The translations under genes were made by a program, and so were the position numbers. Positions 11,488 to 39,714 of a DNA stretch of 64,000 nt are shown piece after piece; the first letter of the stretch is position 1; every line of letters begins with the position of its first letter. Source of the DNA: an uncultured bacterium (GTDB taxonomy: Bacteria > Patescibacteriota > Minisyncoccia > Phycocordibacterales > Phycocordibacteraceae); assembly GCA_963851445.1 (NCBI GenBank), contig CAWKPH010000001.1:553363-617362 (forward strand). Direction: 5' to 3'. The notes beneath the pieces are model-generated. The model saw nothing but the letters and a program-made list of their open reading frames with translations. It was not told the origin of the DNA and searched no databases.

Positions 11488-12708
11488 TTATTCGTAGCGG
11501 AGCGCGTCGATAGGGTTCATTTTTGCTGCTCGACGCGCTGGATACCACCCAAATCCTACACCAATCAACCCCGAAACCCCAAAAGCAAGCAGCACCGAAG
11601 AAAGTGACACGACAGGTGTAATGACACCAGTAAGCGCGACAACGAACGATACAATCCATCCAAGCGCAATCCCGACGACACCCCCGATAAGTGTGAGCAT
11701 AACTGATTCCATAAGAAACTGATTGCTGATATCGCCTTCAGATGCGCCAATAGCCTTTCTAAGTCCGATTTCCTTGGTGCGTTCCGTGACACTTGTGAGC
11801 ATCATGTTCATAATGCCAATTCCCCCCACAAGAAGTGAGATACCTGCAATGGCCCCAAGAAATACGGTGAATGTACCTGTAATTGTAGAAACAGTTGAAA
11901 GGATAGTAGCCTGATTAATAACGCTAAAATCAGCGTTGGCCGGGTCAGAAATACCATGACGTTGTAGAAGCAGAGTGGTAATATCGTTCTCAACTTGTGT
12001 TGTTGCATTGGAGGTTGCTGCCTGAACTCCGATGGAAGTTATATACTGTGCCCCGGTTAGATATTGTTGTGCGGTCGAAATTGGGACAAATACTTCATCA
12101 TCGGTGCTGCCAAATCCAGTTCCACCTGATGCCTGTGTGATGCCGATAACTGTGTACAAAGAGCCATTGATACGGACAGTCTGACCAAGCGAATTGGTAG
12201 TATCACTTCCAAAAAGAGTATCGTTAACAGCAGCCCCAAGTATGGCAACCTGTGCCTCCGTTACCACTTGCTCTTGGCTGAAAAATGAACCTTGTGCGAT
12301 CGTAAGATTGTGTATCGTAGGATAGGTTGGCTGTGTACCGTCGACGGTCGCGTTTATGTTCGTACCAGGCGCCGTAATCTGAAAACCTCGAGCATCTTCG
12401 GCTGCGACCCCAGATACATTGGCTACTTGTGCACTTATTGCTGTAGCATCTGCGAGCGTGAGCGTCTGTGCCGATCCCACTGAACTCCGTACACCGCTCG
12501 TACTAACGGCGCCCGGTCGGACCGTAAGAAGATTCGAACCAAGCGAATCAATACTTGAAGTAATTGACGCTTTCGCTCCGTTACCAATTGCGACGAGTGC
12601 AATTACCGATGCAATCCCGATAACGATACCAAGCATGGTCAGACTCGAACGAATCTTATTGCCTGAAAGCGCAGTAATGGTTTCCGAAAAGAGATCGCCT
12701 GTGGTCAT
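11488..12708 (-). CDS. ABC transporter permease, FtsX/MacB-like
   Basis: An N-terminal TM helix, a large periplasmic domain and a C-terminal 3-TM FtsX-like bundle. It is co-operonic with the ATPase and HlyD adaptor. Confidence 0.75.
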   Translation of the reverse strand: MTTGDLFSETITALSGNKIRSSLTMLGIVIGIASVIALVAIGNGAKASITSSIDSLGSNLLTVRPGAVSTSGVRSSVGSAQTLTLADATAISAQVANVSGVAAEDARGFQITAPGTNINATVDGTQPTYPTIHNLTIAQGSFFSQEQVVTEAQVAILGAAVNDTLFGSDTTNSLGQTVRINGSLYTVIGITQASGGTGFGSTDDEVFVPISTAQQYLTGAQYITSIGVQAATSNATTQVENDITTLLLQRHGISDPANADFSVINQATILSTVSTITGTFTVFLGAIAGISLLVGGIGIMNMMLTSVTERTKEIGLRKAIGASEGDISNQFLMESVMLTLIGGVVGIALGWIVSFVVALTGVITPVVSLSSVLLAFGVSGLIGVGFGWYPARRAAKMNPIDALRYE

Positions 12709-12747
12709 AATATTTATAAAAAGAATGGCATAAAAAGGTAAAGAGAT

Positions 12748-13473
12748 TTAAGTCAAAACATTTTCTTCATCGATCACTGCTTTACGTCGTTCGAAATCGA
12801 TACCGTCACTTACAATTACACCATCCTTAAGACGGATGATGCGCTTAGCGTGCTGTGCAACTTCTAATTCGTGTGTGATGAGGACAATCGTACGTCCATG
12901 TTCTTCGTTAAGCTTCGCGAACGTGTGGAGAACAATCTCCGTCGTACGTGAATCGAGGTTTCCGGTAGGCTCGTCTGCCAGAACGAGTGCAGGGTCGTTC
13001 ACGAGTGCACGCGCAATGGCGACGCGCTGAATTTGTCCTCCTGATAGCTGATTCGAACTATTGTTGAAAAGTGCAGCAGGGAATCCAGCTGCCAAAAGCG
13101 CTTCTTTTGAGCGTGTTTCACGCTCTTCGACCGGTACATCTGCATAAGTAAGGGGCAACATGACATTCTTCAGCACGTTCGTACGGGGCAGAAGATTGAA
13201 TGATTGAAATACAAAACCGATACGGCGTTTACGTACATCTGCAAGCTCGTTGCTCGTCATAGTTGAAACATCTTCGCCATCGAGATCATAAGTCCCTGAG
13301 GTGGGTGTATCGAGACAGCCGAGGATATGCATCAAAGTCGATTTTCCCGACCCCGAAGGACCCATGATTGCTACGAATTCGCCATCAGCAATTTTGAACG
13401 ATACTCCGCGAAGGGCAAACACTTCATTATCTGCGACTTTGTAAATCTTACTAATATCCTTTATCTCAATCAT
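12748..13473 (-). CDS. ABC transporter ATP-binding protein (MacB/LolD-type)
   Basis: Walker A GPSGSGKST, signature LSGGQIQRVAIARAL and Walker B LVLADEPTGNLD. Confidence 0.9.
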   Translation of the reverse strand: MIEIKDISKIYKVADNEVFALRGVSFKIADGEFVAIMGPSGSGKSTLMHILGCLDTPTSGTYDLDGEDVSTMTSNELADVRKRRIGFVFQSFNLLPRTNVLKNVMLPLTYADVPVEERETRSKEALLAAGFPAALFNNSSNQLSGGQIQRVAIARALVNDPALVLADEPTGNLDSRTTEIVLHTFAKLNEEHGRTIVLITHELEVAQHAKRIIRLKDGVIVSDGIDFERRKAVIDEENVLT

Positions 13474-13497
13474 ATGATGCTGACCTCAGACGGCACG

Positions 13498-15540
13498 TTA
13501 ACCACCCCGGCCCGCAAAACCTCCTGCAGCCGCACCTCCTCCACCCCCAGCAGTGGTAGCACCTCCGCTAAATCCACCACCACCCGCTGCACCAGTACCT
13601 CTTGCTGCTCCAGTGCCGCGTAGACCGCCAAAGAGGCTGAATCCGCCTGTACTCGAAGGTGCTGCCTTTGCTGCTGCACCTGAAAGTGTCGAGGTAACGA
13701 CGAATTGTCCGGGGCGAAGTCCGCTCAAAACCTGTACCGTGGTATCGTTCGAAATGCCCACAACGATAGGAACTTCAGTGATGGTCACGTCGCTTTCAGG
13801 AACTGTAATCGAGTGCGAGAATCCGCTTCCGGATAAAACTGTCGATGTCCCTGTGCTGTTTGGGCTGAATCCGCTCGCGTAACTTACAGTTGATGACGCT
13901 GATGTACCTCTGGTAAATCCGGCATAAGGTGCCGTTGACGATGCACCTCGCGTGGGATGTCTCCCTCCCGCACCACCTCTTATTGCCGCGAGAGTCGAAC
14001 TCGCATTCTTAAGGGTCGCCACCTCCACATATGTGGAACCATTCGCGTTGGTTTGAACCGCAGAACTCGAGACTTGTATCGCATCGGAAAGCGAGGACGT
14101 GATGATAGTCGCATCGGCGGTCATACCCGGTTTTATGCGGCTATCGGCAGTGTTGAGTCCGATCTTTACATCGTAGGTGACAACACCGTTACTTACAGTG
14201 CCCACGGGATCAATTTCAGCGACTGTGCCAGTTGCGGTAAGACCATTAATGGCATCAAATGTAATCGTGACCGGTTGGCCAATTTGGATCTTCGTGATAT
14301 CAGCTTCGTTCAGTGAAAGATCGACATAATTTCCGGTTGTGATTAGTGTCGCGACGACAGTTCCGGATCCTGCCTGGTCATACTTATTCACTGGCACGGT
14401 CCCGATGATCCCATTAAAAGGAGCAGTTACAATATAGTCTGATTCATCGGTCTCTGCTTGCGTGACTTCTTCTTGAGCTTTCTCTACCGCAACTTGTGCT
14501 GATTGTACGGTGAGTGGTGTATTACCTGAAGGGGTCAAGGATTGTGTATCCTTTTCTAAATTCTGTTCGGCAGCCGTGAGTGCTGTGTCTGCGCTTGTAA
14601 CACTCGCGCTATCATTGCTGATCGTTGTTTGGTACGAACTGACACTAGAGATCTGACTTGCAAGCTGCGAAGGAACAATGAGCTGTCCTTGCACTACTTG
14701 TGTGTTGATGTAATTCAAGTATATAAGCTCATCGCGAAGCGCTACATCGACGGTTTCGGTCAAGCGGATTGTCGTTTGTGCAAGCTGGTCGACAGCGGTA
14801 GGCGAAATGTTACTTGTATTGAGAGAAGCATATTGAGCTTGGGCTTGTTGATAGGCACTCACGGCGTTCGCATAGTCTTCGGCCACTTGCCGGCTATCCT
14901 CTTGAGATTCCGTCGTATTGATGTAATTCGCATAGGCATCGATGTTTTCTTCGGCTGTGTAGCCAGAAATCGTTGAAAGATTGTGTAGCACGCCGTTCAA
15001 CCCGTTCATCGCGATAGGAAGATCGGTGTATGCTGTCGTTATAGCCCCGGTAGTATTTGCTTGAGCGGTAGTGAGTGCCGTCTGATCGCTCGAGACGCCG
15101 GTTTGAGAGGACGTAAGAGCCTGTTCGTACGTGATCTGGGCACTCTCAAGATCCTGCTGCGCGCTCGCAACTGCCTCAGCGGCATTGGTTGTATCGAGTT
15201 CAGCGACAACGGTACCCGCCTTTACTTGTTCTCCAGGTGTCACATTGAGCTCAGTAATCTCACCGGACGCGGAACCTTGGGGAGTCAGACTTAGCGTATC
15301 GTTGGACGTGACCTGCCCGCTGCCCGTAACCGTTACCTGGAGTGGACCTTGTGTTGTTGCAGCAAGTACGTATTCGCTGCCGGTGCTTCCTGCAGCAAGC
15401 ACGCTGTATCCCCAATACCCCGCAGCAAGTATAACTAACAGAATAACAACACTCGCGACTTTATGCTTGCGCGCGAAAGTGCCAATACGTCGGGTTCCGA
15501 TCTTGATGGAAATCCATAACTTGCTGAAGAAGGTCCTCAT
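13498..15540 (-). CDS. HlyD/MacA-family periplasmic adaptor with a long coiled coil and a Gly/Ala/Thr-rich low-complexity C-terminal tail
   Basis: N-terminal TM anchor, biotinyl-lipoyl-like and beta-barrel segments, and a long Q/A/T-rich coiled coil. The last ~150 aa are dominated by G/A/S/T, ending GGGGFSGGATTAGGGGGAAAGGFAGRGG. Confidence 0.6.
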   Translation of the reverse strand: MRTFFSKLWISIKIGTRRIGTFARKHKVASVVILLVILAAGYWGYSVLAAGSTGSEYVLAATTQGPLQVTVTGSGQVTSNDTLSLTPQGSASGEITELNVTPGEQVKAGTVVAELDTTNAAEAVASAQQDLESAQITYEQALTSSQTGVSSDQTALTTAQANTTGAITTAYTDLPIAMNGLNGVLHNLSTISGYTAEENIDAYANYINTTESQEDSRQVAEDYANAVSAYQQAQAQYASLNTSNISPTAVDQLAQTTIRLTETVDVALRDELIYLNYINTQVVQGQLIVPSQLASQISSVSSYQTTISNDSASVTSADTALTAAEQNLEKDTQSLTPSGNTPLTVQSAQVAVEKAQEEVTQAETDESDYIVTAPFNGIIGTVPVNKYDQAGSGTVVATLITTGNYVDLSLNEADITKIQIGQPVTITFDAINGLTATGTVAEIDPVGTVSNGVVTYDVKIGLNTADSRIKPGMTADATIITSSLSDAIQVSSSAVQTNANGSTYVEVATLKNASSTLAAIRGGAGGRHPTRGASSTAPYAGFTRGTSASSTVSYASGFSPNSTGTSTVLSGSGFSHSITVPESDVTITEVPIVVGISNDTTVQVLSGLRPGQFVVTSTLSGAAAKAAPSSTGGFSLFGGLRGTGAARGTGAAGGGGFSGGATTAGGGGGAAAGGFAGRGG

Positions 15541-15557
15541 ATTTTAAGTACTAAAAA

Positions 15558-16055
15558 TTAATCCGAGGATGTTGTAGGAGTACTCGATCCATTTCCGAGA
15601 ACTGGGGAAAGGATGCGAATCAATTTTGCATCAATCTCACCACCACTCGTTGGTGTGCCAAGCACTACGACCTCGGACCCAATGGCAAGGACATCACTTG
15701 TTACATTGCTGTGCTGATAGCGAATAACTGTATCGCTTCCGAGAACGATTTGTTGTTCCGGCATCTGATTGCTTTCTATTGTAATGCTTGACGATGACAT
15801 GCTCACAATTGTGCCAAAAGCGCCATCAGAGTTAGGCTGATGATCATCGAGGCCAAGCATACCGAGTCCTTGTGATGGATCAACGAAGTTGCGCGCATAA
15901 TTCTCACCCCAATGAGATGGCGACATTCCTTCGTGGTGCCCAACAGCAACCCCGGCTTCAAAAATACATAAAACAATGCATGCAATACTGAAGCCTGCGA
16001 TAATGCCGGCAAAAAGGCGGGAGCGCACGAATCTATTAAGCGAGTCGCGATTCAT
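15558..16055 (-). CDS. Membrane-anchored hypothetical protein
   Basis: N-terminal TM helix and a soluble domain. It sits between the anti-sigma candidate and the efflux operon. Confidence 0.4.
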   Translation of the reverse strand: MNRDSLNRFVRSRLFAGIIAGFSIACIVLCIFEAGVAVGHHEGMSPSHWGENYARNFVDPSQGLGMLGLDDHQPNSDGAFGTIVSMSSSSITIESNQMPEQQIVLGSDTVIRYQHSNVTSDVLAIGSEVVVLGTPTSGGEIDAKLIRILSPVLGNGSSTPTTSSD

Positions 16056-16067
16056 AAATACTTAATT

Positions 16068-16631
16068 TTAGATGCGGAAATGAATTACTGAGGCGCGAAA
16101 TGAGAGGTGCGCAAGAACGATTCCTTGTACAAAATTTTTAATGGAAACGAGTAGCACCGCAATGAGGAAGAGAGTTACTGTTACTTCGACACCAGGAAAT
16201 GCCTGAAGGAGCGACAATGCAAAAACACCAAGATGTGAAGAGATAAGATCAGTATCGGAAATCAAGAGTGGCGCATAGCTCGTAAATCCTGTAGCGCTCG
16301 CTGCACGAACAAGTGCTGGTATAGCGAACATAAGCCCCGCTATGGAGCTTATGCCGGAAAGGGAAGACAGTACAAGTCGCGTACGCGCGTGGCGTTCACG
16401 TTCCCGCTCGAGCGCCAGACATATCCGCTCGCAAAGATACGTAGGTAGTTGCTCTTGCGGCAAAGCTCTAAAAAGCTCCTCATAATTCCTTCCCATATGC
16501 TGTATACGCAGTATAGCTCGGAAATGGTGCATTTTTAGAGAGTAATAGTCCCCATATCGATCTTGCTCAGAGACCCTAAAAAGGGTCCAGAACTTCGACT
16601 CCAGGACACTGCCTAGGTTGTAAGACGCCAA
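16068..16631 (-). CDS. Putative membrane anti-sigma factor
   Basis: It lies immediately downstream of the ECF sigma gene with a 5-nt gap. It has a soluble N-terminus and C-terminal TM helices. Confidence 0.4.
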   Translation of the reverse strand: MASYNLGSVLESKFWTLFRVSEQDRYGDYYSLKMHHFRAILRIQHMGRNYEELFRALPQEQLPTYLCERICLALERERERHARTRLVLSSLSGISSIAGLMFAIPALVRAASATGFTSYAPLLISDTDLISSHLGVFALSLLQAFPGVEVTVTLFLIAVLLVSIKNFVQGIVLAHLSFRASVIHFRI

Positions 16632-16636
16632 AAGCT

Positions 16637-17230
16637 TCAGGCCTCTGCTTCTCTTTTTCTGTATTTCTTTTCAAATTCCTTGCGTAGCGTTATAAGCGCA
16701 CGGCGATGAAGGCTCCGCACAGTATTCGCGGACATTTTGAGAATTTTTGCGATTTCTTCAAACGAAAGTTCTTGCTCGTAGCGCAGATTCAGTATCATCC
16801 GATCGCGCGGCCTAACTTCCTTCAAGGCCTCTTGAACTTCTCCTGCTTGTAGTGCGCGCTCGAAAAGTTCTTCAGGGAGTGGCTCAGGATCGGCGAGCGT
16901 ATCCATAAGTACATTACTGTCATCATCAGCATCGAACCGTGAGAAAGTAACCGATCTGCGCCTGCGCATAATGTCAGTTGCTGTATTTTTTGCGATTGCG
17001 AAGAGCCACGTACGCAGTGAACGTTTAGAATCAAAGCGATTCAAATTACGCCATGCTTTAAGGAATGTTTCCTGAACCGCATCCTGTGCGTCTTCGGTAT
17101 TTCCCATATACCGCACACAGAATGTATATAGTGCTTGAAGATGTCGATTAACAAGCTCTTGAAGTGCTTCGTCATTGCCACTCCGAGCCTTTTCTATGAG
17201 TTCCTGGTCGCTCTGTTGCTCGTCGGGCAT
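16637..17230 (-). CDS. ECF-subfamily RNA polymerase sigma factor
   Basis: Sigma-70 region 2 (DAQDAVQETFLKAWRNLNRFD) and region 4 (LSFEEIAKILKMSANTVRSLHRRAL) are present. Confidence 0.8.
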   Translation of the reverse strand: MPDEQQSDQELIEKARSGNDEALQELVNRHLQALYTFCVRYMGNTEDAQDAVQETFLKAWRNLNRFDSKRSLRTWLFAIAKNTATDIMRRRRSVTFSRFDADDDSNVLMDTLADPEPLPEELFERALQAGEVQEALKEVRPRDRMILNLRYEQELSFEEIAKILKMSANTVRSLHRRALITLRKEFEKKYRKREAEA

Positions 17231-17352
17231 ACGGATTCAGCATACCGTGCCTAGGCTCATTCGTCCCCGCACCTAAGCCCAACACTAAGAAATTATGCTT
17301 TAAAGTGATCATATCTTGTCTCAAATGCAAGATAAATAAGGTACCCCTTAAC

Positions 17353-19887
17353 TCAAACTGTTTTTAGCATGTCGTGTTTAATATCACTAAATGTTCCGTG
17401 TACCTTCTTGCCTGGGTTGAATATGCCCGATGGATCAAAAATACTTTTCGTCTCTTCAAAAAGCGCGACCATTTTGTCACCAAAAAGCATCGGGAGATAT
17501 GGAGTGCGAATAATGCCATCGTTATGTTCGCCAGTGGTCGTTCCCCCATATTTTATGACGAGCGCGTAAACTTTTGGGGCGAGGTCGATGACGACTTGAC
17601 GTACACTAGGCTTCGTAAGATCCATGAGTGGGATAATGTGGAAATTTCCGTTTCCAATGTGACCAGCGACTGTATAAATAAACCTATCTGAATATTCCGC
17701 AAGCAGCATGTCGAGTTCCGGAAGGAATTGTGGGTAGGTATCAGGGGGTACCACGAAATCATCGATAAAAGGCGATGCATAGAGACCATGTACATTCTTA
17801 CGAAGAAGGGCAAAGCTCTCGCGACGTACGATCCAGTATTTCTCCGACTCGCGTTCGTTTTTTTTGATACTCATCTGTAAACCCATGTCTCGAAGGGCAT
17901 CATGTGCTTCTTGTGCCCGTTGAAGCGCTTCTGTGGGGGTATCGGCAGAGAATTCTGCCATCAAAATAAGTTTGGGAACACCTCCGGAAATAACCATGGC
18001 AGTCTCCGGAATGAATGAAAGTCCTAGGCGAAGTGCGCGATTGAAGCCCATTTGCGAGAGCATTTGCGGCATGAATCTAATGGCAAGTTTAAAAGTCTGA
18101 TCATCATACGACTCAAATGATTCAGGATTGAAGGGAAGTACCCTGTGCACTATTTCTGGAAGTATCCTGAGATCTTTCAAGAAAATAACTAACATCGCAC
18201 GGTGACTTTCTTCTTTCACGAGTCGTAATTTTGCTTTGGTCATGAGAGCAAGCGTGCCCTGTGCCCCGCATATTAGACGCGCGAGATTAAAGGTACCTTT
18301 TCCGCTATGAATTACATTCCAAAGTGCGTATCCGGCAGAATTTTTCGATACTTTTGGTCTTGCATTTTGGATCACTTCGGCATTCTCCGTAATAAGTGCA
18401 TGCATCTTACGATAAATTTCGCCCTCGAAGTCCCGCTGGCGCTTCTTTTCTTCCAGTCCTGCCGGGTCAAGATCTTTAAAAGTCGTAAGTGTGCCATCTG
18501 AAAGCACCACCTCAATCTCTTCAATATAATCCTCAGTTTTACCATATTCAAGGGTGCGTTCGCCTCCTGAATTATTGTTCACGATACCTCCTATCGCACA
18601 GAGCTCGCGAGACGCAGGGTAGGAAGGAAGCACAAGATTCCCTCGAGCAAGTGTCTGTTTCTCAAAATCGCGATAGAAGACTCCTGGCTCGGCAACAGCA
18701 GAGCCGTGAGTTATGACGTGAGGTACCGTATCAGATTTTCTATCTGTTTCTTTGTTAATACTTATAATCCTGTTCATATATTTCAAAAAGACAGTGACGA
18801 TGGAATTCGTGAGTGGGCCTCCGCTCATGTCAGTTCCTGCCGATCGGCCAGTCAGGGAAACACTCTGGCCTGCATCTTTGGCAGCTCGTACGGTTTTTAC
18901 TAGCGCAACTACATCCTGTGTATCTTTGGGATATACAACGAGCGATGGCTTGATCTTGAAGAGACTTGTATCGCGACTATATTTTTCGATTTCAGACTCC
19001 GCATCGGTAACGTCACCTTTAATTGCCGACCGTATCTTTTCTTCAAGCTCGTTTGAGATATTTGATTGGGTGTCAGTTGTTGTAATGTCCTTCGTGATGA
19101 CCTTATCGTCACGGATCTCGAGCACTGTACTTACAGGTATCTCATCAAGCAAAGTCTTGATAAACGATGCAGTATCCAGTGGACCTTTTACTGCGTGGGT
19201 TGGAATATCTATTTTCGTAATTACTTCGTCATTACCTCCTTGTGTCAATCGATCTCCGACGTACAGCATTGCCGAAAGAGGCACATGTAATTCCTTTGCT
19301 AGTTGTTGTACGCCATAAGCTTTATCAATGCCTGGCTTTGTTACGTCAATCGAGGTCGCGCCCCCTATTTTCACATCAAAATCGGGCAAGAGCACCTTGA
19401 TCGCTTCCTGAAGTTTCCTTTTCTTTTCGCTGGTGGGGTCCCATCGACGCTTCTCGGCAATGGGTGCCTCCTGGCCGAGTGCGGAGATGGTAACTTGGGT
19501 TCCGCGAGTCTCAATTCGTTCACCATATGAAGGGAGAGAGAAATCGATGACTCCAGAATCTATCGCACCTTGTTCAATCGCTGTTTCTATCCGATCAATC
19601 TCTTTGGGATCAAGATCTTCTTCATATACCTTCGCCCAAGCCTGGTCATGATAAGCGAACATTTCCGCACCTGAAGTTGGGAAGAGGTAAAGATTGCGGA
19701 GTTCAGCAGAGGGCGGCAGTTCCTCGGTGACTTGATGGTGAAGCTGCTCCAATTTTTCACCCGTTATTACGGCAAGAATTGTTTTATTCAAAAGCTCTGC
19801 AATAAGTTTTGCCATATCGGAAGTTATTGGCACCTTACTTTCTGAAAGGGTATCGTCGAGATCAAATATGATAGCTTTCGGGATCAT
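17353..19887 (-). CDS. Fusion protein: N-terminal HAD-IIB (phosphomannomutase-like) phosphatase domain + C-terminal FAD-linked oxidase (GlcD/PCMH-type FAD-binding)
   Basis: HAD motif I IFDLDDTL and motif IV GDRLTQGGNDEV. The FAD-binding PCMH motif is GRSAGTDMSGGPL...AIGGIVNNNSGG. A C-terminal GGTTTGEHNDG motif is also present. Confidence 0.6.
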   Translation of the reverse strand: MIPKAIIFDLDDTLSESKVPITSDMAKLIAELLNKTILAVITGEKLEQLHHQVTEELPPSAELRNLYLFPTSGAEMFAYHDQAWAKVYEEDLDPKEIDRIETAIEQGAIDSGVIDFSLPSYGERIETRGTQVTISALGQEAPIAEKRRWDPTSEKKRKLQEAIKVLLPDFDVKIGGATSIDVTKPGIDKAYGVQQLAKELHVPLSAMLYVGDRLTQGGNDEVITKIDIPTHAVKGPLDTASFIKTLLDEIPVSTVLEIRDDKVITKDITTTDTQSNISNELEEKIRSAIKGDVTDAESEIEKYSRDTSLFKIKPSLVVYPKDTQDVVALVKTVRAAKDAGQSVSLTGRSAGTDMSGGPLTNSIVTVFLKYMNRIISINKETDRKSDTVPHVITHGSAVAEPGVFYRDFEKQTLARGNLVLPSYPASRELCAIGGIVNNNSGGERTLEYGKTEDYIEEIEVVLSDGTLTTFKDLDPAGLEEKKRQRDFEGEIYRKMHALITENAEVIQNARPKVSKNSAGYALWNVIHSGKGTFNLARLICGAQGTLALMTKAKLRLVKEESHRAMLVIFLKDLRILPEIVHRVLPFNPESFESYDDQTFKLAIRFMPQMLSQMGFNRALRLGLSFIPETAMVISGGVPKLILMAEFSADTPTEALQRAQEAHDALRDMGLQMSIKKNERESEKYWIVRRESFALLRKNVHGLYASPFIDDFVVPPDTYPQFLPELDMLLAEYSDRFIYTVAGHIGNGNFHIIPLMDLTKPSVRQVVIDLAPKVYALVIKYGGTTTGEHNDGIIRTPYLPMLFGDKMVALFEETKSIFDPSGIFNPGKKVHGTFSDIKHDMLKTV

Positions 19888-21812
19888 AGAGGAATATGTA
19901 GCGATGGAAGAAGCCGTTTGATAATTTCCTTTTTCGAGAGTGTTGCGACCCCCGTCGCGCAGTCGCCCCCGCCGTAATACACATAGAGCGTATCGTCACG
20001 CAACACAGCACCACACGAAAAGACGACGTTATGGACCTGTCCCTTACGCTCCCATTCAAGTATAGGTTCCAGGATTGGCATTGCCGTTCGAGAAATCACA
20101 CTTATACCGGCTTCCGCATCGAGAAGTGCCGCACCAAGTCGATATGCAAAATCGGGCCCCACCGCGTGGTATAGATAGAGCCACCCTTCTTCAACCCGTA
20201 TCGGTGGAGCAGCGCTTCCCACTTTTATGCCATCCCACATACCAAGCCTTGGAACCATAAGATCGATGCTGCGTTTTATCTTGGCAGTATCCATGGCATG
20301 TGGTGGAGGAAATTCATCAAGGAAATCGACACATATATTCGGATCAATCCGATGGATAAGCATAGTCTTTCCGCCAATTGGTTCAGGAAATATACAGAAG
20401 TCCTTGTCGTTTATGCCCACAGGGCTCAAAAATTGTGGTGACGACCAGTTGAAGTTCCTGGCAAGGAAATCATCGACAGAAATCGTTGAGAGCGCGCCAT
20501 GCGCGAGAACACCATCAAATGCAGTATAGGTGAGATAGAGTACATCACCGATGCGGGTAAGACGAGGATCTTCGGTACCACGTGCTTCTAAAACTTCGCG
20601 TGGTTTATATACTGGGTCAGGTAAACGTTCATCTATGTGGATGCCGTCCTTCGATTGTGCATATCCAAGGCGTGAAATCCCATCCTCTCCCATAGCACGG
20701 TAAAGGAGATGTATCGACCCTTCGAGTTCGATCGCGGCGGCATTGAACGTGGATAGTGATTCCCATGGATGCGAAGGATCTGGAGAAAGTATTGGTTGCT
20801 CGCTGACTCGGTTCATAAATTGAGCACGCTTATCCGCATACATGCAAGAAAGAAGGTCACTAAGAGAAAGCGCAGCTTCAGCCGCTACGGTATCCGCAGC
20901 TCCGTAAAATATGCGCAGAGTATCGCCATTCACGAGCGCGCCGGAAGGAAATACTACATTGGAGACGACGCCATACTTTTCATAAGGTTCTTCGGGTACC
21001 AAGAAGGGAAACTCGGTCTTTGCGAGTATCTGTTGTGGATCGTCAGAATCTAGTAGCAGCGCTTCGATTCCAAAGATCCGATTTCGTTCATCATAATAAT
21101 TTTGAATATGCGAATAGACAAGAAGCCATCCTTCTTTGGTCAAGATGGGAGTGGCGCCAATCTCTACGTGCTCAGTATCAGCACGCCTTACATCTGGAAA
21201 GGCATGATTCTCGAGATGCTCGTGCCATACATTCCAAAATTCGGGATTCCAAAAATCTTCAATATTCGATGCGTGTGCAAGACCAATGGTGGGACGTGGG
21301 TGTTCCTCGGTAAAATCAGTGTGGGCGGTTACCAGCATCACTACTTGGCCGTTGATGCGTTCGGGGAAAAGCGTAGCTGCCTTCGCATTGAAAGGTGTGA
21401 CGAGATGTCTTTCAGTCAGCTCGTCAGGGCGATCGCCTATGGCGACCGCCGCTTTGATGTTATCTGGACCGAACGGATATCCACCTAGCGCAGTGTAGAA
21501 AACATACCACTTACCCTCAAAGAACGTCGCGCGCGGATCTTCGCATCCGTATGTCTCCCAATCTTCTTTAGGGGCAATGACCTGTTTTCGATTTTCGAAC
21601 CCCCCGTCTTTATGCAAACATGTATAACCAATTGTTGAAAAGCCGCGTCCTGGGGTACGAATTTGATCTGGCTCAGCCATCGCTCGATAAAAAAGATGTG
21701 TGTCGCTTTCATGCACAACCGCTGAGGGATTAAAAGTGCCAATCGCTTCAAATGCATTCGCTCGCACAGGCGAGAGAAGTGGATTCCTTGGTGAACGGAA
21801 GACCGATAACAT
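19884..21812 (-). CDS. Tandem double GH130 (glycoside hydrolase family 130, beta-mannoside phosphorylase-like) protein
   Basis: Two GH130-like repeats are present. Each carries the G-x-EDPR motif (YGCEDPRATFF and RGTEDPRLTRIG) and a LFYRAM... N-terminal motif. Confidence 0.7.
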   Translation of the reverse strand: MLSVFRSPRNPLLSPVRANAFEAIGTFNPSAVVHESDTHLFYRAMAEPDQIRTPGRGFSTIGYTCLHKDGGFENRKQVIAPKEDWETYGCEDPRATFFEGKWYVFYTALGGYPFGPDNIKAAVAIGDRPDELTERHLVTPFNAKAATLFPERINGQVVMLVTAHTDFTEEHPRPTIGLAHASNIEDFWNPEFWNVWHEHLENHAFPDVRRADTEHVEIGATPILTKEGWLLVYSHIQNYYDERNRIFGIEALLLDSDDPQQILAKTEFPFLVPEEPYEKYGVVSNVVFPSGALVNGDTLRIFYGAADTVAAEAALSLSDLLSCMYADKRAQFMNRVSEQPILSPDPSHPWESLSTFNAAAIELEGSIHLLYRAMGEDGISRLGYAQSKDGIHIDERLPDPVYKPREVLEARGTEDPRLTRIGDVLYLTYTAFDGVLAHGALSTISVDDFLARNFNWSSPQFLSPVGINDKDFCIFPEPIGGKTMLIHRIDPNICVDFLDEFPPPHAMDTAKIKRSIDLMVPRLGMWDGIKVGSAAPPIRVEEGWLYLYHAVGPDFAYRLGAALLDAEAGISVISRTAMPILEPILEWERKGQVHNVVFSCGAVLRDDTLYVYYGGGDCATGVATLSKKEIIKRLLPSLHIPL

Positions 21813-21814
21813 AG

Positions 21815-22987
21815 TTATACGCCTATTGGCATACTGAGCACAGTGGGGGAAAGAGCCTGAGGCTCATGCTTGAGAAGCTTGTTCACAAATTGCGAAAGAG
21901 AGGTTGTGGCGCTGCAAACGAAATTGTCTGCGGCCCCGTAATACACGGTGAGCCGGTCATTCTCTTTGGCTGTGCCACAGGCATACACAACGCCTGGTTT
22001 TGCACCACCCATCTCATATTCTGTATTGGGTGTAAGCACGGGTATAGGACTGCGTACAATTACCTTTGTAGGGTCATTCTTTTCAAGAAGCATCGCTCCA
22101 ATTTGATAGAGATACTCGCTGCTGGTCGCATGGTAAAAGAGCAGCCACCCCTTATCAGTTTTAACTGGTGCTGGTCCTGCGCCACGCACCCAACTATCCC
22201 AGTGATTCGCGCGCCCTTCGGTCCTGGCTCCTCGTGGACTTTCAATATAAGGTTCTGACGTACCGACTGAGCCAAGATCTTTTCGATAGGCGACCTGAAC
22301 ATTTGGTGAAATGCTATGAAGTATGGCAAACATGCCATTTATTTTCTCGGGGAAAAGCACCCAATTCTTGTGGACTTCATTTTGCCGCGAAAGGAATACC
22401 GGCTTTGACCAATTCCAACGCTTCTTTTTCAGATCGGAAAGCGCAATTGAGGTAGTTGTGATACGCACCGAATCCCAGTTATGAAAGGCCGAAAATGTGA
22501 GATAGACACGATCACCCATGAGTACTGCACGTGGATCTTCTGCGCCACCCCATGACCCACCTGATGCGATTAGTTCAGGATAATGTGCATGGGCATATGC
22601 GCGACGCATCGCATCCAAATGTGGATCAGGCCCTTCAAATGCAAAGACAGGATAGGGAAGACGTTCATCGATATGTATACCGTCCTTTGAAGATGCGTAG
22701 CCAATGCGTGAGACGCCATCGCTGCCAATTGCTCGGTAAAAGAGATGAGTTTTTTCGCCATCACTTATCGCAGCAGGATTCATTACCGCCTCCTTCTCAA
22801 AATCATAACCACTCGGATGAAGAAGGGGATTGCCTTCGTTGCGCTTGAGCGAAAAATCTGCCGTGTCTATGGCATGCTGTTTCTCCATCCGCTTTGGCTG
22901 ACGGAATAATTCCCAAGCACCCCATAAGAAAAGAAATGTGGTCCCCAGCGCGAGCATAATTGCGAGGAATAAGATGATGATACTCAT
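21815..22987 (-). CDS. GH130-family glycoside phosphorylase/hydrolase with N-terminal TM anchor
   Basis: Motifs HLFYRAIGSDGVSRIGYASSKDGIHIDERL and GGAEDPRAVLMGDRVYLTFSAF, after an N-terminal hydrophobic helix. Confidence 0.7.
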   Translation of the reverse strand: MSIIILFLAIMLALGTTFLFLWGAWELFRQPKRMEKQHAIDTADFSLKRNEGNPLLHPSGYDFEKEAVMNPAAISDGEKTHLFYRAIGSDGVSRIGYASSKDGIHIDERLPYPVFAFEGPDPHLDAMRRAYAHAHYPELIASGGSWGGAEDPRAVLMGDRVYLTFSAFHNWDSVRITTTSIALSDLKKKRWNWSKPVFLSRQNEVHKNWVLFPEKINGMFAILHSISPNVQVAYRKDLGSVGTSEPYIESPRGARTEGRANHWDSWVRGAGPAPVKTDKGWLLFYHATSSEYLYQIGAMLLEKNDPTKVIVRSPIPVLTPNTEYEMGGAKPGVVYACGTAKENDRLTVYYGAADNFVCSATTSLSQFVNKLLKHEPQALSPTVLSMPIGV

Positions 22988-23002
22988 AATATTCTTATAA
23001 AT

Positions 23003-23356
23003 TTATACACGTCCGAAATCATCCTCGACACGTTCAATGTCGTTCTCATCAAAGTTTCCGATTGAAATCTCGAGTACCGCTACGCCCTGCTCACCGCCCC
23101 TCAGTCTATGGAGTGTTTCTGGGGGAATTTCAATTTCGTCGTTCATACTGATCTGCCATTCCTTATCACCAACATGAGCAACTCCGTCTCCTCCAATGAC
23201 CTTCCACCATTCTGAGCGGTGCGTATGCTTTTGGAGAGATAGTTCCTTGTTAGCGTCAATGTGCAGAATCTTTACAGTCGAAGGTTCATTTTCAGTAAAT
23301 CGTTCAAACGATCCCCAGGGGCGATGCTCCTCATACCGATTAGACAAAAGGGACAT
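23003..23356 (-). CDS. Cupin-type mannose-6-phosphate isomerase (type II PMI C-terminal cupin domain-like)
   Basis: RPWGSFERF...HRSEWWKVIGG...GD cupin motifs. It is the first gene of the mannoside operon. Confidence 0.65.
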   Translation of the reverse strand: MSLLSNRYEEHRPWGSFERFTENEPSTVKILHIDANKELSLQKHTHRSEWWKVIGGDGVAHVGDKEWQISMNDEIEIPPETLHRLRGGEQGVAVLEISIGNFDENDIERVEDDFGRV

Positions 23357-23483
23357 AAGATATATACAGAATACCTTATAATCGCTCGGTTTACTCTGGG
23401 GAATAAGTGCATAGCAGAATTCATCTTCTCAAGTCAATTCGCCATATAAACTTATGCAAGTATACTAAGCACACCTGTCACTT

Positions 23484-24236
23484 ATGGAACGGATACCTTT
23501 TTTCTCGATTGTAGTTCCTGCCCATAATGAGGAAGCATACATAGGACAGACGCTTGAAAAGCTCTGTGCGCTCGAGTACCCGAAGGATTTCTATGAGGTA
23601 ATTGTCGTCGAGAACGGTTCTGACGATGCTACTCTTATGAAAGCAAGAGAATTTGAGCACGGAAGGGATACCCCTATCAAAGTATTTACCTGTAAGGAAC
23701 CAGGCGTTTCAAGAGCGCGAAATATGGGTAGCACGAAGGTTCGTAGCGATGCGGACTGGGTATTTTTTCTTGACGCCGATACCTTTCCTGACCCACCCTT
23801 TTTGCGATCGTTCCTACGATACCTTGACGCGAATGCATCTAAAAAATTTGTCGTCGGCACAGTATCCCTTGGGCCTTATCCCTCAACCATAGTCATGCGT
23901 GTGATATACGCGGTTACGAATGTATTCTTTTCATTCTCCGGTGCCGCTTACGGCGGCGCACTCCTCATCCGCCGTGAACTACTCGAGTCGATTTCGTTTG
24001 AAGAAGATATTCATGTTGGTGAGGAGGCATCACTCATCACATGCGCAAAACGAAAGGGACGATATTTTTTCTTTTACACTGCATACGCTCACACATCAAC
24101 ACGCAGATTTCAGAATGGTGGCTGGAAAAAAATCCCAATTTGGATAGGAATGTGGATATTTGCTATGATAGTTCCAAACCATGCCTCCATTTCATCCTCA
24201 ATCCATCGTCGCTTCAAGTACAAAGCAGTTCGCTAA
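23484..24236 (+). CDS. Family 2 glycosyltransferase
   Basis: FSIVVPAHNEE...VVENGSDD...FFLDAD (GT-A DxD). Confidence 0.75.
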   Translation: MERIPFFSIVVPAHNEEAYIGQTLEKLCALEYPKDFYEVIVVENGSDDATLMKAREFEHGRDTPIKVFTCKEPGVSRARNMGSTKVRSDADWVFFLDADTFPDPPFLRSFLRYLDANASKKFVVGTVSLGPYPSTIVMRVIYAVTNVFFSFSGAAYGGALLIRRELLESISFEEDIHVGEEASLITCAKRKGRYFFFYTAYAHTSTRRFQNGGWKKIPIWIGMWIFAMIVPNHASISSSIHRRFKYKAVR

Positions 24237-24972
24237 ATTGCATCAAGCAACAACGCATTTTGCATCTCGATTCATCACGACCCCAGTCGCCGCATTCATT
24301 GCTTGGCTCAGTGTTCATACACACATTGCATATCTAGCACTTTTTATCGGTGCCTATCTTGATGCACTTATTGGTCCTTCACTTTTAATACCCGGTGAAG
24401 TCGTGTTCCTTTCGGGTTCGATTCTTGCGGGAAGACACGTTCTTCTTATTTGGCTCGTAGCTCTTTATGTATATCTGGGAGGCATTTTGGGGGATACAAC
24501 AAGCTATTGGATTGGGCGCGCGCTCGGCATTTCTCTTTTTCACGAACGTAAGAAGTTTCTGAACATAAGGCACTATCACAATGCGCGGAAGTTTGTCGAC
24601 AAGTACGGTCCGAAAGCAATTTTTTTTGCTCGACTCGTAGGCCCATTCTCAAAGATCGCACCAACCCTTGCCGGTATTCTCGAAATCCCTTTCGGGACTT
24701 TTCTCCTATATAACATCCCAGGCGTATTGGTTGGTATCGGGGAGTTCCTTCTCATCGGATATATTTTTGGGAATCGCTATGAGCTTGTCCTGTGGCTCTT
24801 TGAGCGATATACGATTCTATTTTTTATTGCGCTTTTTGCAGCACTCCTTATCCATTGGCAATATAAAAAACACCGCGCTCGCAAGAAGCGAAATGGGCTG
24901 AGATACCAAGGATGGGGAAGACAAAACAAAAGATTCCTAAGGAGTAATGGAATTCAGCAGGAAGTGGGGTAG
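24181..24972 (+). CDS. DedA/SNARE-associated family membrane protein (start may be downstream of the annotated overlap)
   Basis: The GEVVFLSGSILAG motif and a multi-TM topology. Confidence 0.7.
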   Translation: MPPFHPQSIVASSTKQFAKLHQATTHFASRFITTPVAAFIAWLSVHTHIAYLALFIGAYLDALIGPSLLIPGEVVFLSGSILAGRHVLLIWLVALYVYLGGILGDTTSYWIGRALGISLFHERKKFLNIRHYHNARKFVDKYGPKAIFFARLVGPFSKIAPTLAGILEIPFGTFLLYNIPGVLVGIGEFLLIGYIFGNRYELVLWLFERYTILFFIALFAALLIHWQYKKHRARKKRNGLRYQGWGRQNKRFLRSNGIQQEVG

Positions 24973-24984
24973 TATAGGTAGCGT

Positions 24985-25845
24985 ATGCTCACATACACGC
25001 AAGCATTCATTCTAGGACTCGTGCAGGGTGTGACTGAACTTTTTCCGGTTTCGAGCCTCGGCCACAGTGTACTTCTTCCCACACTTCTGGGCTGGCAGAT
25101 ATCGCAAAGTGCCCCTATGTTTGTCGAATTTCTAGTCATCACGCACGTTGCGACCGCACTTACCCTACTCGCATACTTTTGGCAGGACTGGATACGCCTT
25201 GCTAAGGGTTTTATTCGGTTGATTTTTACACAAAGTACTAGTCCGACAGATCCGTATAGCCGGCTTGCATGGCTTCTTGTGGTCGCCACCATTCCAGCAG
25301 GTCTTCTGGGCCTTCTCTTCCAGAATTCGATTGAGAACTTATTTTCTGCACCACGTATCGTTGCTGGAATGCTGATTTTGAACGGATTACTGCTCTATAT
25401 AGCTGAAAGCTTAAAACGCCGTCGCACACGTCTCGAAAACACGCGTATCTCGGGTGATGTTGCGATAGTAACTAAACTTTCGTGGCTTTCTGCGTTCGGC
25501 ACGGGACTCATGCAAGCACTCGCACTTATTCCAGGATTCTCTCGTACCGGGGCTTCGCTCACAGGAGGTCTCCTTTCTGGACTTGATCGCGAAAGCGCAG
25601 CACGTTTCTCGTTCCTTCTTGCAACGCCCCTCATACTTGCCGCTGGAGCACTTAAATTGCCACAACTCTTCCATGCTCAGTATCCTGTTATGCCGCTTCT
25701 TTTTGGCGCGCTTATTGCCGCGTGCGCCTCATACCTTTCTGTAGCATTTCTTACGCGGTACTTTAGAACGAACACACTCATACCATTTGCATGGTACTGT
25801 ATCGTACTAGGCGGGCTATCTCTTATCGCTCTTGTCTATTTTTAA
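24985..25845 (+). CDS. uppP: Undecaprenyl-diphosphatase
   Basis: BacA/UppP motifs GLVQGVTELFPVSSLGHS and GFSRTGASLTGG, with 8 TM helices. Confidence 0.85.
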   Translation: MLTYTQAFILGLVQGVTELFPVSSLGHSVLLPTLLGWQISQSAPMFVEFLVITHVATALTLLAYFWQDWIRLAKGFIRLIFTQSTSPTDPYSRLAWLLVVATIPAGLLGLLFQNSIENLFSAPRIVAGMLILNGLLLYIAESLKRRRTRLENTRISGDVAIVTKLSWLSAFGTGLMQALALIPGFSRTGASLTGGLLSGLDRESAARFSFLLATPLILAAGALKLPQLFHAQYPVMPLLFGALIAACASYLSVAFLTRYFRTNTLIPFAWYCIVLGGLSLIALVYF

Positions 25846-25944
25846 TTCTGAGTATCCTTATAGTCACAAGGATCGTATTTATGTTTTCGACCTATACAAA
25901 ATCATGCTAGCGTATAAGAGAAAATGTGACACAGTGAAAAAATC

Positions 25945-26886
25945 ATGAAATTTTCATGCATTTCTGCGGTTATCCCAGTTCATAATGAGGCAGGGAACCT
26001 GAAAAGACTCCACGAGGAGCTCGTCCAGGTACTTTCGACTTGTAGCTCAGAGTACGAAATTATTTATGTAAACGATGCAAGTACTGATGGATCGCTCGCT
26101 GAGCTCCAAACATTGAAGGATTGTACGATTATTAATTTGCGTCGCAAATACGGTCAGGCGACTGCACTCGATGCCGGTTTCAAGGCAGCGAAAGGAGATT
26201 TGATCGTCTCGCTTGACGGCGACGGTCAGAATGACCCCGCAGATATTCCAAAACTACTCCGTGAGCTTGAGGACAAGAATTTCGATGTCGTTACTGGCTG
26301 GCGCAAGCAACGCGCTGACAATCATGGTATTCGAGTCCTTACGCGTATTGGTCGTGCATTCCGGCGGTTTCTCATCCAGGATCCAGCTCATGACACCGGG
26401 TGTACCCTCCGAGTGTATCGCGCCGAAGCTATAAAGAGCCTTGAACTCGGGGGTGAAATGCATCGCTACATACTCGCACTCTTGCGCTGGAAGGGATTCA
26501 CTGTTGGAGAAGTCGTCGTGAGGGACCGTCCACGCTTACATGGCAAGAGCAAATACGGCTATGGCAAGGCTGTACGAGGGCTTATTGATCTCATATACAT
26601 TTGGTTCATTTACAAATATTCACAGCGCCCGCTCCACCTCTTTGGCTATATGAGCTTTGCTGCGCTTGCGGCCGGCGCCATATCCCTTGTTCTCACTATT
26701 TATGACCGCACGGTACTGGGTATCCACCTGAATGACGATGGCTGGTTTTATATCACATTCTTTCTTTTAATCGCGGCAATAATGCTATTCTCATTTGGCA
26801 TCATCATTGATCTATTGCTGCGCATCTACCTCAGTACCTCGTCCGTGCAAAAACCATACTACGTTAAGGATATTCAAAAGATATAG
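25945..26886 (+). CDS. Polyprenyl-phosphate glycosyltransferase (GT2, DPM1/GtrB/ArnC-like) with C-terminal TM helices
   Basis: ISAVIPVHNEAGN...YVNDASTDGS...LDGDGQND, with two C-terminal TM segments. Confidence 0.75.
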   Translation: MKFSCISAVIPVHNEAGNLKRLHEELVQVLSTCSSEYEIIYVNDASTDGSLAELQTLKDCTIINLRRKYGQATALDAGFKAAKGDLIVSLDGDGQNDPADIPKLLRELEDKNFDVVTGWRKQRADNHGIRVLTRIGRAFRRFLIQDPAHDTGCTLRVYRAEAIKSLELGGEMHRYILALLRWKGFTVGEVVVRDRPRLHGKSKYGYGKAVRGLIDLIYIWFIYKYSQRPLHLFGYMSFAALAAGAISLVLTIYDRTVLGIHLNDDGWFYITFFLLIAAIMLFSFGIIIDLLLRIYLSTSSVQKPYYVKDIQKI

Positions 26887-26898
26887 TTTTAGATAACT

Positions 26899-27264
26899 CT
26901 ACTTTTTCTCATTCCAACGCCATGCCGCGTGCTCACCAGTTTTGTAACAAACCCAAAGGACAATGATGGTAATAAGGATGATCCATATAAAGAAACCAGC
27001 GACCACAAGAGCTGAAGCGGGAGTAGAGCCAAGTGCAATAGGATCGTTCGAGAATTGAAGAGTGAAGAGAAGGACCGAGCCCGCAATTATAAGGGCATAG
27101 CCGAGGGTCACAAACCATCCCTCAATGGAGATGGGTACCCACCCAAGGCCATATCTTTTTGCCCTAAACCAGGGCCGTTTTTGATATCTTTTCATGGGTA
27201 GCAAGTGTAGTCCGTGCAAAGAGAAAAAGCAAGTCTTTAGGCCATATTTTCTCGCTTTGTCCAT
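26899..27264 (-). CDS. Small membrane protein (hypothetical)
   Basis: 121 aa with two TM helices. Confidence 0.4.
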   Translation of the reverse strand: MDKARKYGLKTCFFSLHGLHLLPMKRYQKRPWFRAKRYGLGWVPISIEGWFVTLGYALIIAGSVLLFTLQFSNDPIALGSTPASALVVAGFFIWIILITIIVLWVCYKTGEHAAWRWNEKK

Positions 27265-27380
27265 TCAAAGTTCCATAGAAATTGCTTGACAAAAAGGGTC
27301 CCTAGATGATAGGATAGCCCTATGGGTTAGATAGGTCAGGAGGCTCTATTCGTAGAGCCTTTCGCCTTTCTACCTCACTT

Positions 27381-28016
27381 ATGCATAAGATCCTGCCCCT
27401 CATGGGGCTACTTCTTCTAGCAAATAGTGTCTTAGCGCCAACAATGGCCAATGCCCAGACAGCGCCCGGCTCGTTTACCCCGAGTTCGACTAGCGCCCCA
27501 ACAGGCATGACGACCAACCAAGCGGTTCAGGAATCCACAGCGACACCACTCAGTCTCTCGGTGACGCTTACCTCGTATAATGCGGTTCCTGCTCAAACTA
27601 GCCCGACGCCGTGGATCACGGCGAGCGGTGCCCCCTCTGACTCGCAGGTAATCGCAGCACGATCTCACGATCTTGCGGGCGAGCTACCATACGGGACGAT
27701 TATCGCCATTGAGGGTCCGACCTCTTCTGGTGGGTATACCTGTGGCTATAGCGACGTTCAGGGTCTTATCGGGTATCGCGTAATTGCCGACGAGATGAAT
27801 ATCCGAATGAAAAACAAGGTCGACGTGATGCTTAATCAATACGATACAGTTCCTGTGGGAGACCGATATATAAATCCTGCAGTAGCCCTCGGTGCCTGCG
27901 CTGGAACACACATTCAAATAGTGGGGTACGTTAACCCCCAACATATTCCGAGCACCCAGGCAGGACTTGCAGCTCTCGTAACAGGTGGTCAAGATCTCGC
28001 ATTTGCAAAGTTCTAA
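27381..28016 (+). CDS. Secreted protein, possible 3D (MltA/RlpA-like) domain
   Basis: Signal peptide MHKILPLMGLLLLANSVLA. VIAARSHDLAGELPYGTIIAIEG and the later D/N-rich segment weakly resemble a 3D domain. Confidence 0.35.
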   Translation: MHKILPLMGLLLLANSVLAPTMANAQTAPGSFTPSSTSAPTGMTTNQAVQESTATPLSLSVTLTSYNAVPAQTSPTPWITASGAPSDSQVIAARSHDLAGELPYGTIIAIEGPTSSGGYTCGYSDVQGLIGYRVIADEMNIRMKNKVDVMLNQYDTVPVGDRYINPAVALGACAGTHIQIVGYVNPQHIPSTQAGLAALVTGGQDLAFAKF

Positions 28017-28061
28017 TAGTTTCGATCACTCTCCCAAGATAATCTGCTACACTATTCGGAC

Positions 28062-39132: not shown

Positions 39133-39188
39133 TCTGCACCTCTAAGGTTCAAATTCAAACTAAATATAACACAGTATTCAGAATTGTC

Positions 39189-39232: not shown

Positions 39233-39238
39233 ACACCA

Positions 39239-39697: not shown

Positions 39698-39714
39698 TAG
39701 AGGACGTTAGAACC
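39687..39714 (+). repeat. Cassette-array repeat A3 (truncated: GCTCCGCATGATAGAGGACGTTAGAACC)
   Basis: The left half of the family A box only. Confidence 0.7.

Follow-up and report, generated by a model that had tools for sequence, protein, structure and literature searches.

We report the discovery of a fusion between two enzyme families in a 64,000-nucleotide stretch of DNA (the window) from an uncultured bacterium of the Patescibacteriota (contig CAWKPH010000001.1, positions 553,363 to 617,362). A single gene at the end of a mannoside-utilization operon codes for an 844-residue protein, in which a predicted phosphohexomutase domain of the PgmH/phosphomannomutase (PMM) type is joined to a dehydrogenase-like domain dependent on flavin adenine dinucleotide (FAD). 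The latter domain probably acts on a small D-2-hydroxyacid, with D-lactate being the leading candidate. On balance, we favor the proposal that this protein is the bifunctional product of two co-transcribed genes that merged, with the mutase and the D-2-hydroxyacid dehydrogenase acting as autonomous domains.

The open reading frame (ORF) runs uninterrupted from its ATG to the stop codon, and four Pfam domains are detected in its product above their curated cut-offs: PMM (PF03332; residues 25-247, 44.2 bits against a cut-off of 22.4), Hydrolase_3, FAD_binding_4 (PF01565; residues 314-469, 83 against 26.4 bits) and FAD-oxidase_C (PF02913; residues 564-827, 131 against 21.2 bits). The NCBIfam model HAD-SF-IIB (TIGR01484) additionally matches residues 6-221 with 60.4 bits against a cut-off of 41.8. 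An earlier note, made from the sequence alone, had read this gene as an uncommon fusion of a HAD-IIB domain with a PCMH/GlcD-type FAD-linked oxidase at the end of a mannoside operon, and in this description it was correct. Each motif it quoted is found in the translation (1-based numbering): IFDLDDTL at residues 7-14, GDRLTQGGNDEV at 211-222, GRSAGTDMSGGPL at 347-359, AIGGIVNNNSGGERT at 431-445 and GEHNDG at 786-791.

The fusion is not peculiar to a single assembly. An identical 844-residue ORF is present on a 13.8-kb contig (L001) in the Logan assembly of run ERR11630394, which maybe derives from the same sample as the source DNA and was built with another assembler. Beyond it, we recovered 48 further full-length fusions as protein clusters at 90% identity. 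They are 796-871 residues long and 53-66% identical, contain the same four Pfam domains and stem from JGI, ENA and NCBI samples. One of the members of this family, KND51746.1 from Parcubacteria bacterium C7867-001, has long been public under a generic automated name. At the level of species-representative genomes, the oxidase is encoded in at least 556 stretches from GTDB, the best 80 of which (L007-L086) form our locus survey; all 80 are from Patescibacteria labelled Parcubacteria, Paceibacteria or Kaiserbacteria, and six of them (L007, L010-L014) carry both domains in one ORF. The fused form is nevertheless rare: among 1.84 billion clusters at 50% identity a single representative (P0016) is a full-length fusion, and the other strong matches in that library are either the oxidase alone (about 540-590 residues) or forms of 930-1000 residues, of which the two scanned (P0312 and P0320) have a C-terminal Fer4 and CCG half. 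A 950-residue protein from another lineage (P0278; L089:698-3550) is a different fusion, with a Pyr_redox_2 domain at the N-terminus of a homologous oxidase. A literature search returned no mention of the fusion, or of this oxidase in Parcubacteria. Hence, the architecture is rare, phylogenetically narrow, restricted to Patescibacteria and uncharacterized; it probably represents a new combination of two known enzyme families and no new kind of chemistry.

The earlier note had left the N-terminal half as either a PMM-like mutase or a HAD-IIB phosphatase, and the evidence upholds the former and not the latter. A phmmer search matches residues 3-247 over their whole length to residues 3-248 of PDB entry 4BND, the PgmH/APGM protein of Lactococcus lactis (E 1.6e-42), and the remaining PDB matches with E < 1e-5 are all eukaryotic-type phosphomannomutases. 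An AlphaFold2 (AF2) model of the fusion superposes on 4BND in Foldseek with a target TM-score (TMt) of 0.92 and a root-mean-square deviation of 1.8 Å, with the C2B cap included. Motif I (DxDxT) is present as F8-D9-L10-D11-D12-T13, and motifs II-IV as T42, K189 and G211-D212...G217-G218-N219-D220-E221, aligned with those of APGM and the PMMs; motif I as a whole, along with T42, K189, D212 and N219-D220, is invariant across the 49 fusions. In PMM2 the bisphosphate is held by Lys189 of the core together with the cap residues Arg134 and Arg141, and Arg21 serves as a clasp (PMC4263888). K189 of the window protein corresponds to Lys189; at the positions of PMM2 R21, R123, R134 and R141 it has the core residue K18 and the cap residues R128, Q139 and K146, again invariant in all 49 fusions, and this is exactly the pattern of the L. 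lactis enzyme, in which Lys likewise stands for Arg21, Gln for Arg134 and Lys for Arg141. In contrast, the Cof-type phosphatase model (TIGR00099) reaches only 41.5 bits against a cut-off of 137, and does so over residues 152-213 only. Because of the match to 4BND, the intact motifs, the cap residues and the low Cof score, we predict that the N-terminal half is a phosphohexomutase of the PgmH/PMM type and not a generic HAD phosphatase.

Its closest characterized relative, L. lactis PgmH/APGM, is an alpha-phosphoglucomutase (Neves et al. 2006, J Biol Chem 281:36864, as cited in PMC8576529). It has the DxDxT, Lys and GDx6GGNDxE motifs in common with the fusion; however, it is a stand-alone protein of 252 residues, whereas the fusion has a C-terminal extension of 590 residues. 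It also differs in context: the linked GH130 and mannose-6-phosphate isomerase (PMI) cupin genes argue for mannose phosphates as substrates of the fused mutase, instead of or besides glucose phosphates. The eukaryotic PMM1/PMM2 proteins share with the fusion the PF03332 domain, the HAD-IIB fold and the reaction predicted for the window operon, but they are distant in sequence (E 1e-14 to 1e-6), and two of their three phosphate-clasping arginines are replaced in the fusion. Stand-alone homologs of the mutase half, of about 249 residues, are plentiful in Patescibacteria (3616 matches).

For the C-terminal half, Foldseek recovers as nearest structures mouse LDHD (8jdv, TMt 0.84), a D-lactate dehydrogenase of Porcellio (9qgz), RPA1076, LctD of the Acetobacterium Ldh-EtfAB complex (7qh2) and human D2HGDH (6lpn); alkyl-dihydroxyacetone phosphate synthase and oxidases of the vanillyl-alcohol type are clearly more distant. 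The mammalian LDHD structures (8jdc-8jdy), 9qgz and LctD are the best structural matches, with TMt values of 0.80-0.85. In mouse LDHD (mLDHD), Mn2+ and the glycolate part of the substrate are bound by Arg347, His398, His405, Glu442 and His443, all of them essential to the enzyme (PMC10589216). A HMMER alignment to mLDHD (about 20% identity), anchored by the H405A mutant chain, places R688, H743, H750, E787 and H788 of the fusion at these five positions, and all five are invariant in the 49 fusions. The hydrophobic second subsite of mLDHD is likewise kept, with Trp351, Ser365 and Ile407 corresponding to F692, I708 and I752. This subsite, as read from an alignment of such low identity, suggests a substrate with a small or apolar side chain over a sugar acid or a dicarboxylate. 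The earlier note had pictured the two halves as carrying out coupled steps on a single substrate derived from a sugar, and it is this 2-hydroxy-carboxylate site with its hydrophobic second shell that speaks against such a scheme. Differences from the LDHD group are also apparent: identity is 20-22%, the fusion is about 100 residues longer (at residues ~470-560 and ~597-635), and no Etf (electron-transferring flavoprotein) partner is seen for it.

Among the NCBIfam models, that for YdiJ matches residues 271-829 best, through its N-terminal half. Over 566 residues the FAD module is colinear with residues 15-538 of the 1018-residue Escherichia coli YdiJ (26% identity, E 8e-49), and a long insert behind the FAD domain is common to both. 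The activity of YdiJ is strictly that of a D-2-hydroxyglutarate dehydrogenase (PMC9504171), and the Dld-II enzymes, which have the same build, are lactate dehydrogenases (PMC4117512). The long homologs with 32-37% identity to the FAD module carry the Fer4 and CCG domains; however, the fusion ends where the iron-sulfur (Fe-S)/CCG half of YdiJ starts, and Pfam detects neither Fer4 nor CCG domains in it. As this defining C-terminal 4Fe-4S/CCG half is missing, and the YdiJ model is matched with 240.8 bits against an equivalog cut-off of 1350, we rejected membership in the YdiJ/Dld-II family. Membership in the GlcD family was rejected too, with TIGR00387 giving 169 bits against a cut-off of 567.9 and no GlcE/GlcF partner being found: none of the window ORFs scanned codes for a GlcE/GlcF-like or CCG-domain protein. 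Thus, the FAD half is predicted to work like the enzymes of the LDHD/YdiJ/Dld-II group, yet is a member of neither YdiJ/Dld-II nor GlcD.

Gene-neighborhoods place the fusion in a well-defined context. It is the last gene of a same-strand cluster that begins with a cupin gene and continues with a single GH130 gene and a tandem double GH130 gene, the stop codon of which overlaps the ATG of the fusion by 4 nucleotides (Table 1). The cupin also heads the cluster in related loci, and the double GH130 form (about 635-650 residues) is kept in at least 26 of them. The best models for the GH130 proteins are beta-1,2-mannobiose phosphorylases, just short of cut-off; the C-terminal half of the double protein scores 407 bits against 450 on the NCBIfam model, and its N-terminal half shows weak likeness to the beta-1,2-mannosidase model. 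In two loci (L028 and L074) genes for PGI/PMI and a ROK sugar kinase come after the cupin-GH130-HAD set. Scanning positions 16400-23700 for promoters and terminators gave counts no higher than the shuffled expectation, so operon boundaries cannot be set in that way, and an Rfam scan of the whole window yielded no family at gathering score, tRNAs included, and thus no riboswitch ahead of the operon.

Table 1. Features of the fusion gene, its operon and the terminal oxidase genes next to related oxidases. Plain coordinates are those of the window; coordinates after a locus name are those of that locus.
Feature	Coordinates	Strand	Basis
Fusion gene, 844 codons and stop	17353..19887	-	ORF list and translation; identical ORF in the separate assembly L001
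Predicted PgmH/PMM-type HAD-IIB phosphohexomutase domain, residues 1-250	19138..19887	-	4BND match, Foldseek, Pfam, TIGR01484
Flexible linker, residues 251-276	19060..19137	-	AF2 pLDDT < 50; unalignable among 49 fusions
FAD-dependent D-2-hydroxyacid dehydrogenase-like domain, residues 277-844	17353..19059	-	Pfam, NCBIfam, Foldseek, residue alignment
Tandem double GH130, 642 residues	19884..21812	-	Pfam GH130, two matched stretches; same position in related loci
Single GH130, 390 residues	21815..22987	-	Pfam/NCBIfam; seen in related loci
Cupin, 117 residues, first operon gene	23003..23356	-	Pfam MannoseP_isomer, 76 bits; mannose-6-phosphate isomerase C-terminal domain
AOX-like genes next to the oxidase	L008, L009, L023, L024, L026, L027, L031, L033, L037, L040, L068, L079
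AOX-like gene, example	L009:12448-13140
cydAB next to the oxidase, six Paceibacteria lineages	L005:9796-12200, L006, L011:13150-15500, L017, L020, L022, L058

Unfused counterparts of the same operon shed light on how the fusion arose. In related Paceibacteria (L003-L006, L015 and others) the order is cupin, GH130, double GH130, mutase and dehydrogenase, with a mutase of 254-257 residues and an oxidase of 556-560 residues encoded by genes that either overlap by 4 nucleotides or are separated by a spacer of 9-60 nucleotides. In these relatives, a stop codon, the 9-60-nucleotide spacer and a start codon occupy the place of the linker. Across the 80 surveyed loci, the HAD gene lies directly upstream of the oxidase in about 16; in about 23 the cupin-GH130-HAD set lies 1.5-7 kb upstream of it, with the intervening genes, mostly on the opposite strand, including those for a PIF1-like helicase, pyruvate kinase and LexA; and in about 34 the oxidase stands alone. 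In L018 (9389-10753) and L019 (3807-5240) the HAD homolog that precedes the oxidase is contained in a frame of 455-478 codons from stop to stop and may have an N-terminal extension. A more distant oxidase homolog (P0241, 52% identity) has neither HAD nor GH130 neighbors, and the linkage is therefore confined to the Paceibacteria clade.

The linker itself varies from 0 to about 45 residues among the 49 fusions, is rich in Pro, Ala, Ser and Thr, and is unalignable. In the AF2 model it has a predicted local distance difference test (pLDDT) score below 50, both flanking domains are confident, and the predicted TM-score (pTM) is 0.65. With the linker disordered and hypervariable, the halves separate in most relatives, and the oxidase also found far from GH130 and HAD genes, the notion of a functional interface between the halves finds no backing. 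In a neighbor-joining tree, and by nearest-neighbor identities, the fused proteins fall in at least three groups that are interleaved with unfused ones. The window protein clusters with the unfused P0054, P0056 and P0082 (the last, from L003, being fully syntenic), beside a mostly fused clade; the nearest-neighbor identities of 75.7% and 74.6% are too close to tell whether fusion took place independently or fission came later, or to count such events. Given the unfused syntenic neighbors and the disordered, variable linker, the simplest reading is that the fusion is a merger of co-transcribed neighbors through read-through of the short spacer, which may have happened on more than one occasion.

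We also observed a recurrent association of the oxidase with genes for terminal oxidases, either like the alternative oxidase (AOX) or cytochrome bd, which it adjoins in 18 of 83 related loci. In 12 of these the oxidase is followed immediately, on the same strand and often after 17-60 nucleotides, by a gene for a 231-residue protein; all 12 copies match the Pfam AOX model (best E 1.6e-9) and display an invariant di-iron-type pattern, E...NExxH...FExH...DExxH. Five of these 12 loci are HAD-oxidase pairs lacking GH130. In six further loci cydAB is convergent with the oxidase and lies 0.1-1.5 kb downstream of it, and one of these (L011) carries the fused gene. These neighbors point to an oxygen-linked disposal of electrons from the oxidase, and we count the Pyr_redox_2 fusion of the same oxidase in another lineage (P0278) toward its role as part of an electron sink.

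Hence, we posit the following functions for the two halves. The two upstream GH130 beta-mannoside phosphorylases would release alpha-mannose-1-phosphate, the mutase half would convert it to mannose-6-phosphate, and the cupin isomerase, product of the first operon gene, would turn this into fructose-6-phosphate. As the operon needs a step between the GH130 enzymes and the cupin isomerase, mannose rather than glucose is most likely the sugar handled by the mutase here, although it may double as the Glc-1-P/Glc-6-P mutase of the cell. The FAD half, as a metal-dependent enzyme of the LDHD, Dld-II or YdiJ-N type, would oxidize a small D-2-hydroxyacid, foremost D-lactate, to the 2-ketoacid. Its electrons would pass to an acceptor outside the polypeptide, probably a quinone from which a terminal oxidase is fed where the lineage has one, or else directly to O2. 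The halves would be autonomous domains on a disordered tether, with their fusion securing co-expression and stoichiometry and no intermediate being passed between them.

Several observations sit uneasily with this proposal. Both substrate assignments are based on homology, with identities of 34-40% in the mutase half and 20-26% in the dehydrogenase half. A second, invariant arginine, R689 in RRESF, has no counterpart in LDHD and could hold a second anionic group. The 64-kb window has no terminal oxidase, Etf or Fe-S partner genes, and quinone synthesis is not known from Patescibacteria. The assignment of the AOX-like protein comes from Pfam scores and motif inspection, and neither single-sequence nor profile comparisons matched it to solved AOX structures. 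Finally, the proposal leaves unexplained why the mutase and dehydrogenase genes are neighbors also where none for GH130 lies within 10 kb (L008, L009, L040, L068, L029 and L046); together with the retention of the fusion across 53-66% divergence, these pairs hint at a link between the two activities beyond co-expression.

We consider it unlikely that the tether is itself functional; the fusion would then belong to an unrecognized Patescibacterial pathway with a physical coupling between the entry of sugar and a minimal electron chain that consumes oxygen. In one version the halves may process both products of GH130 phosphorolysis of a beta-mannosyl-D-2-hydroxyacid; in another the mutase may be co-localized with a membrane-associated D-lactate:quinone dehydrogenase that feeds the AOX-like or cytochrome bd oxidase.

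We regard as quite improbable a sequential pathway in which the HAD half dephosphorylates a phospho-2-hydroxyacid, such as 2-phosphoglycolate, phospholactate or phosphoglycerate, and the FAD half oxidizes the freed hydroxyacid. HAD-IIB enzymes do include phosphatases, some of them acting on phosphoglycolate, and the HAD-oxidase adjacency outside the GH130 context in several loci, the long life of the fusion and the invariant additional arginine beside the carboxylate-binding one would all fit such a pathway. However, the HAD half is full-length and 34-40% identical, with a TM-score of 0.92, to a characterized mutase, its only other relatives in the PDB are PMMs, it falls far short on the Cof-type phosphatase model, and its cap keeps the residues with which the mutases hold the distal phosphate; moreover, the operon requires exactly a Man-1-P/Man-6-P mutase.

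It appears very doubtful, too, that the two halves handle the two products of a single phosphorolysis, whereby GH130 would split a beta-mannosyl-D-2-hydroxyacid of the mannosyl-glycerate or mannosyl-lactate type, with mannose-1-phosphate going to the mutase and the hydroxyacid to the FAD site. This scheme would give a reason for the tethering of just these two activities, and is consistent both with the position of the fused gene, which directly follows the double GH130 gene in all seven cases examined, and with the upkeep in the operon of two divergent GH130 paralogs, neither of which reaches the equivalog cut-offs of known specificities. Yet their best models are beta-1,2-mannobiose phosphorylases, for which the aglycone is mannose, and roughly half of the loci have the oxidase by itself or accompanied by HAD only. 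No GH130 enzyme is known to use a beta-mannosyl-D-2-hydroxyacid as substrate.

Highly improbable is the oxidation by the FAD half of a sugar-derived compound of the mannoside pathway, such as mannose, mannonate or a sugar phosphate. The location in a mannoside operon would favor it, and some members of the VAO/PCMH superfamily are indeed sugar or alditol oxidases; however, the C-terminal domain is of the FAD-oxidase_C and not the BBE or ALO type, it retains the full LDHD site for the 2-hydroxy-carboxylate and metal with the hydrophobic second subsite, its nearest structures are all D-lactate or D-2-hydroxyacid dehydrogenases, and GH130 genes are missing near the oxidase in many loci. Lastly, although the genes are separate in most relatives and lie so close, overlapping or 9-60 nucleotides apart, that a single indel could fuse them, the identical ORF in the Logan assembly, the 48 other clusters with intact frames from unrelated samples and the six fused species-representative genomes leave a vanishingly small chance that a sequencing or assembly frameshift created the fusion, and we reject an artifact.

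The surroundings of the operon offer some additional observations. Divergently from it, a cluster at 23484-29537 on the plus strand codes for a family 2 glycosyltransferase (GT2), a DedA/VTT-domain protein, UppP/BacA, a second GT2, an ORF without assignment and a PMT-family transferase of the polyprenyl-phosphate-mannose type; the cluster resembles a polyprenyl-phosphate-sugar glycosylation module beside the mannose-phosphate genes, which suggests that mannose phosphates also serve envelope glycosylation. On the other side, a minus-strand block at 11488-17230, with genes for an extracytoplasmic function (ECF) sigma factor, two ORFs without assignment (one weakly matching DUF5666) and a HlyD-MacB type ATP-binding cassette (ABC) exporter, separates the fusion from a block coding for RRM, methyltransferase, bPH and histidyl-tRNA synthetase (HisRS) proteins. 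The same insertion is seen in L003, and in many related loci the latter block sits nearer the oxidase. Further downstream in window coordinates, two convergent genes with overlapping ends (36901-37530, plus strand; 37508-38041, minus strand) code for NADPH-dependent flavin mononucleotide (FMN) reductase/flavodoxin-like proteins. They are followed from about 38600 to 56000 by a long run of ORFs, mostly without Pfam matches, which also holds genes for a Clp protease, a trypsin-like peptidase, an LPD3 domain and a histidine-kinase-like ATPase with DUF4325. The GC content is about 50% at 40-52 kb against about 45% before, and a mobile element or prophage may have integrated here. At 62001-64000 the GC content falls to 35.6%, with a GC skew of 0.17.

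The fusion serves as a Rosetta-stone pointer that ties together a PgmH-type mutase, a conserved beta-mannoside phosphorylase operon and an FAD-dependent D-2-hydroxyacid dehydrogenase. This tie spans hundreds of Paceibacteria species, in which the dehydrogenase often lies beside genes for terminal oxidases. The species concerned, Patescibacteria with tiny genomes, are uncultured organisms of minimal metabolism, usually called obligate fermenters. If the dehydrogenase does deliver its electrons to an AOX-like or cytochrome bd oxidase, this would bear on how these bacteria handle oxygen and on what their hosts supply. The fusion protein is also a compact candidate for biochemical characterization. 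Were the mutase truly co-localized with a D-lactate:quinone dehydrogenase that feeds such an oxidase, it would amount to a two-enzyme respiratory or oxygen-scavenging route in organisms supposed to be purely fermentative.

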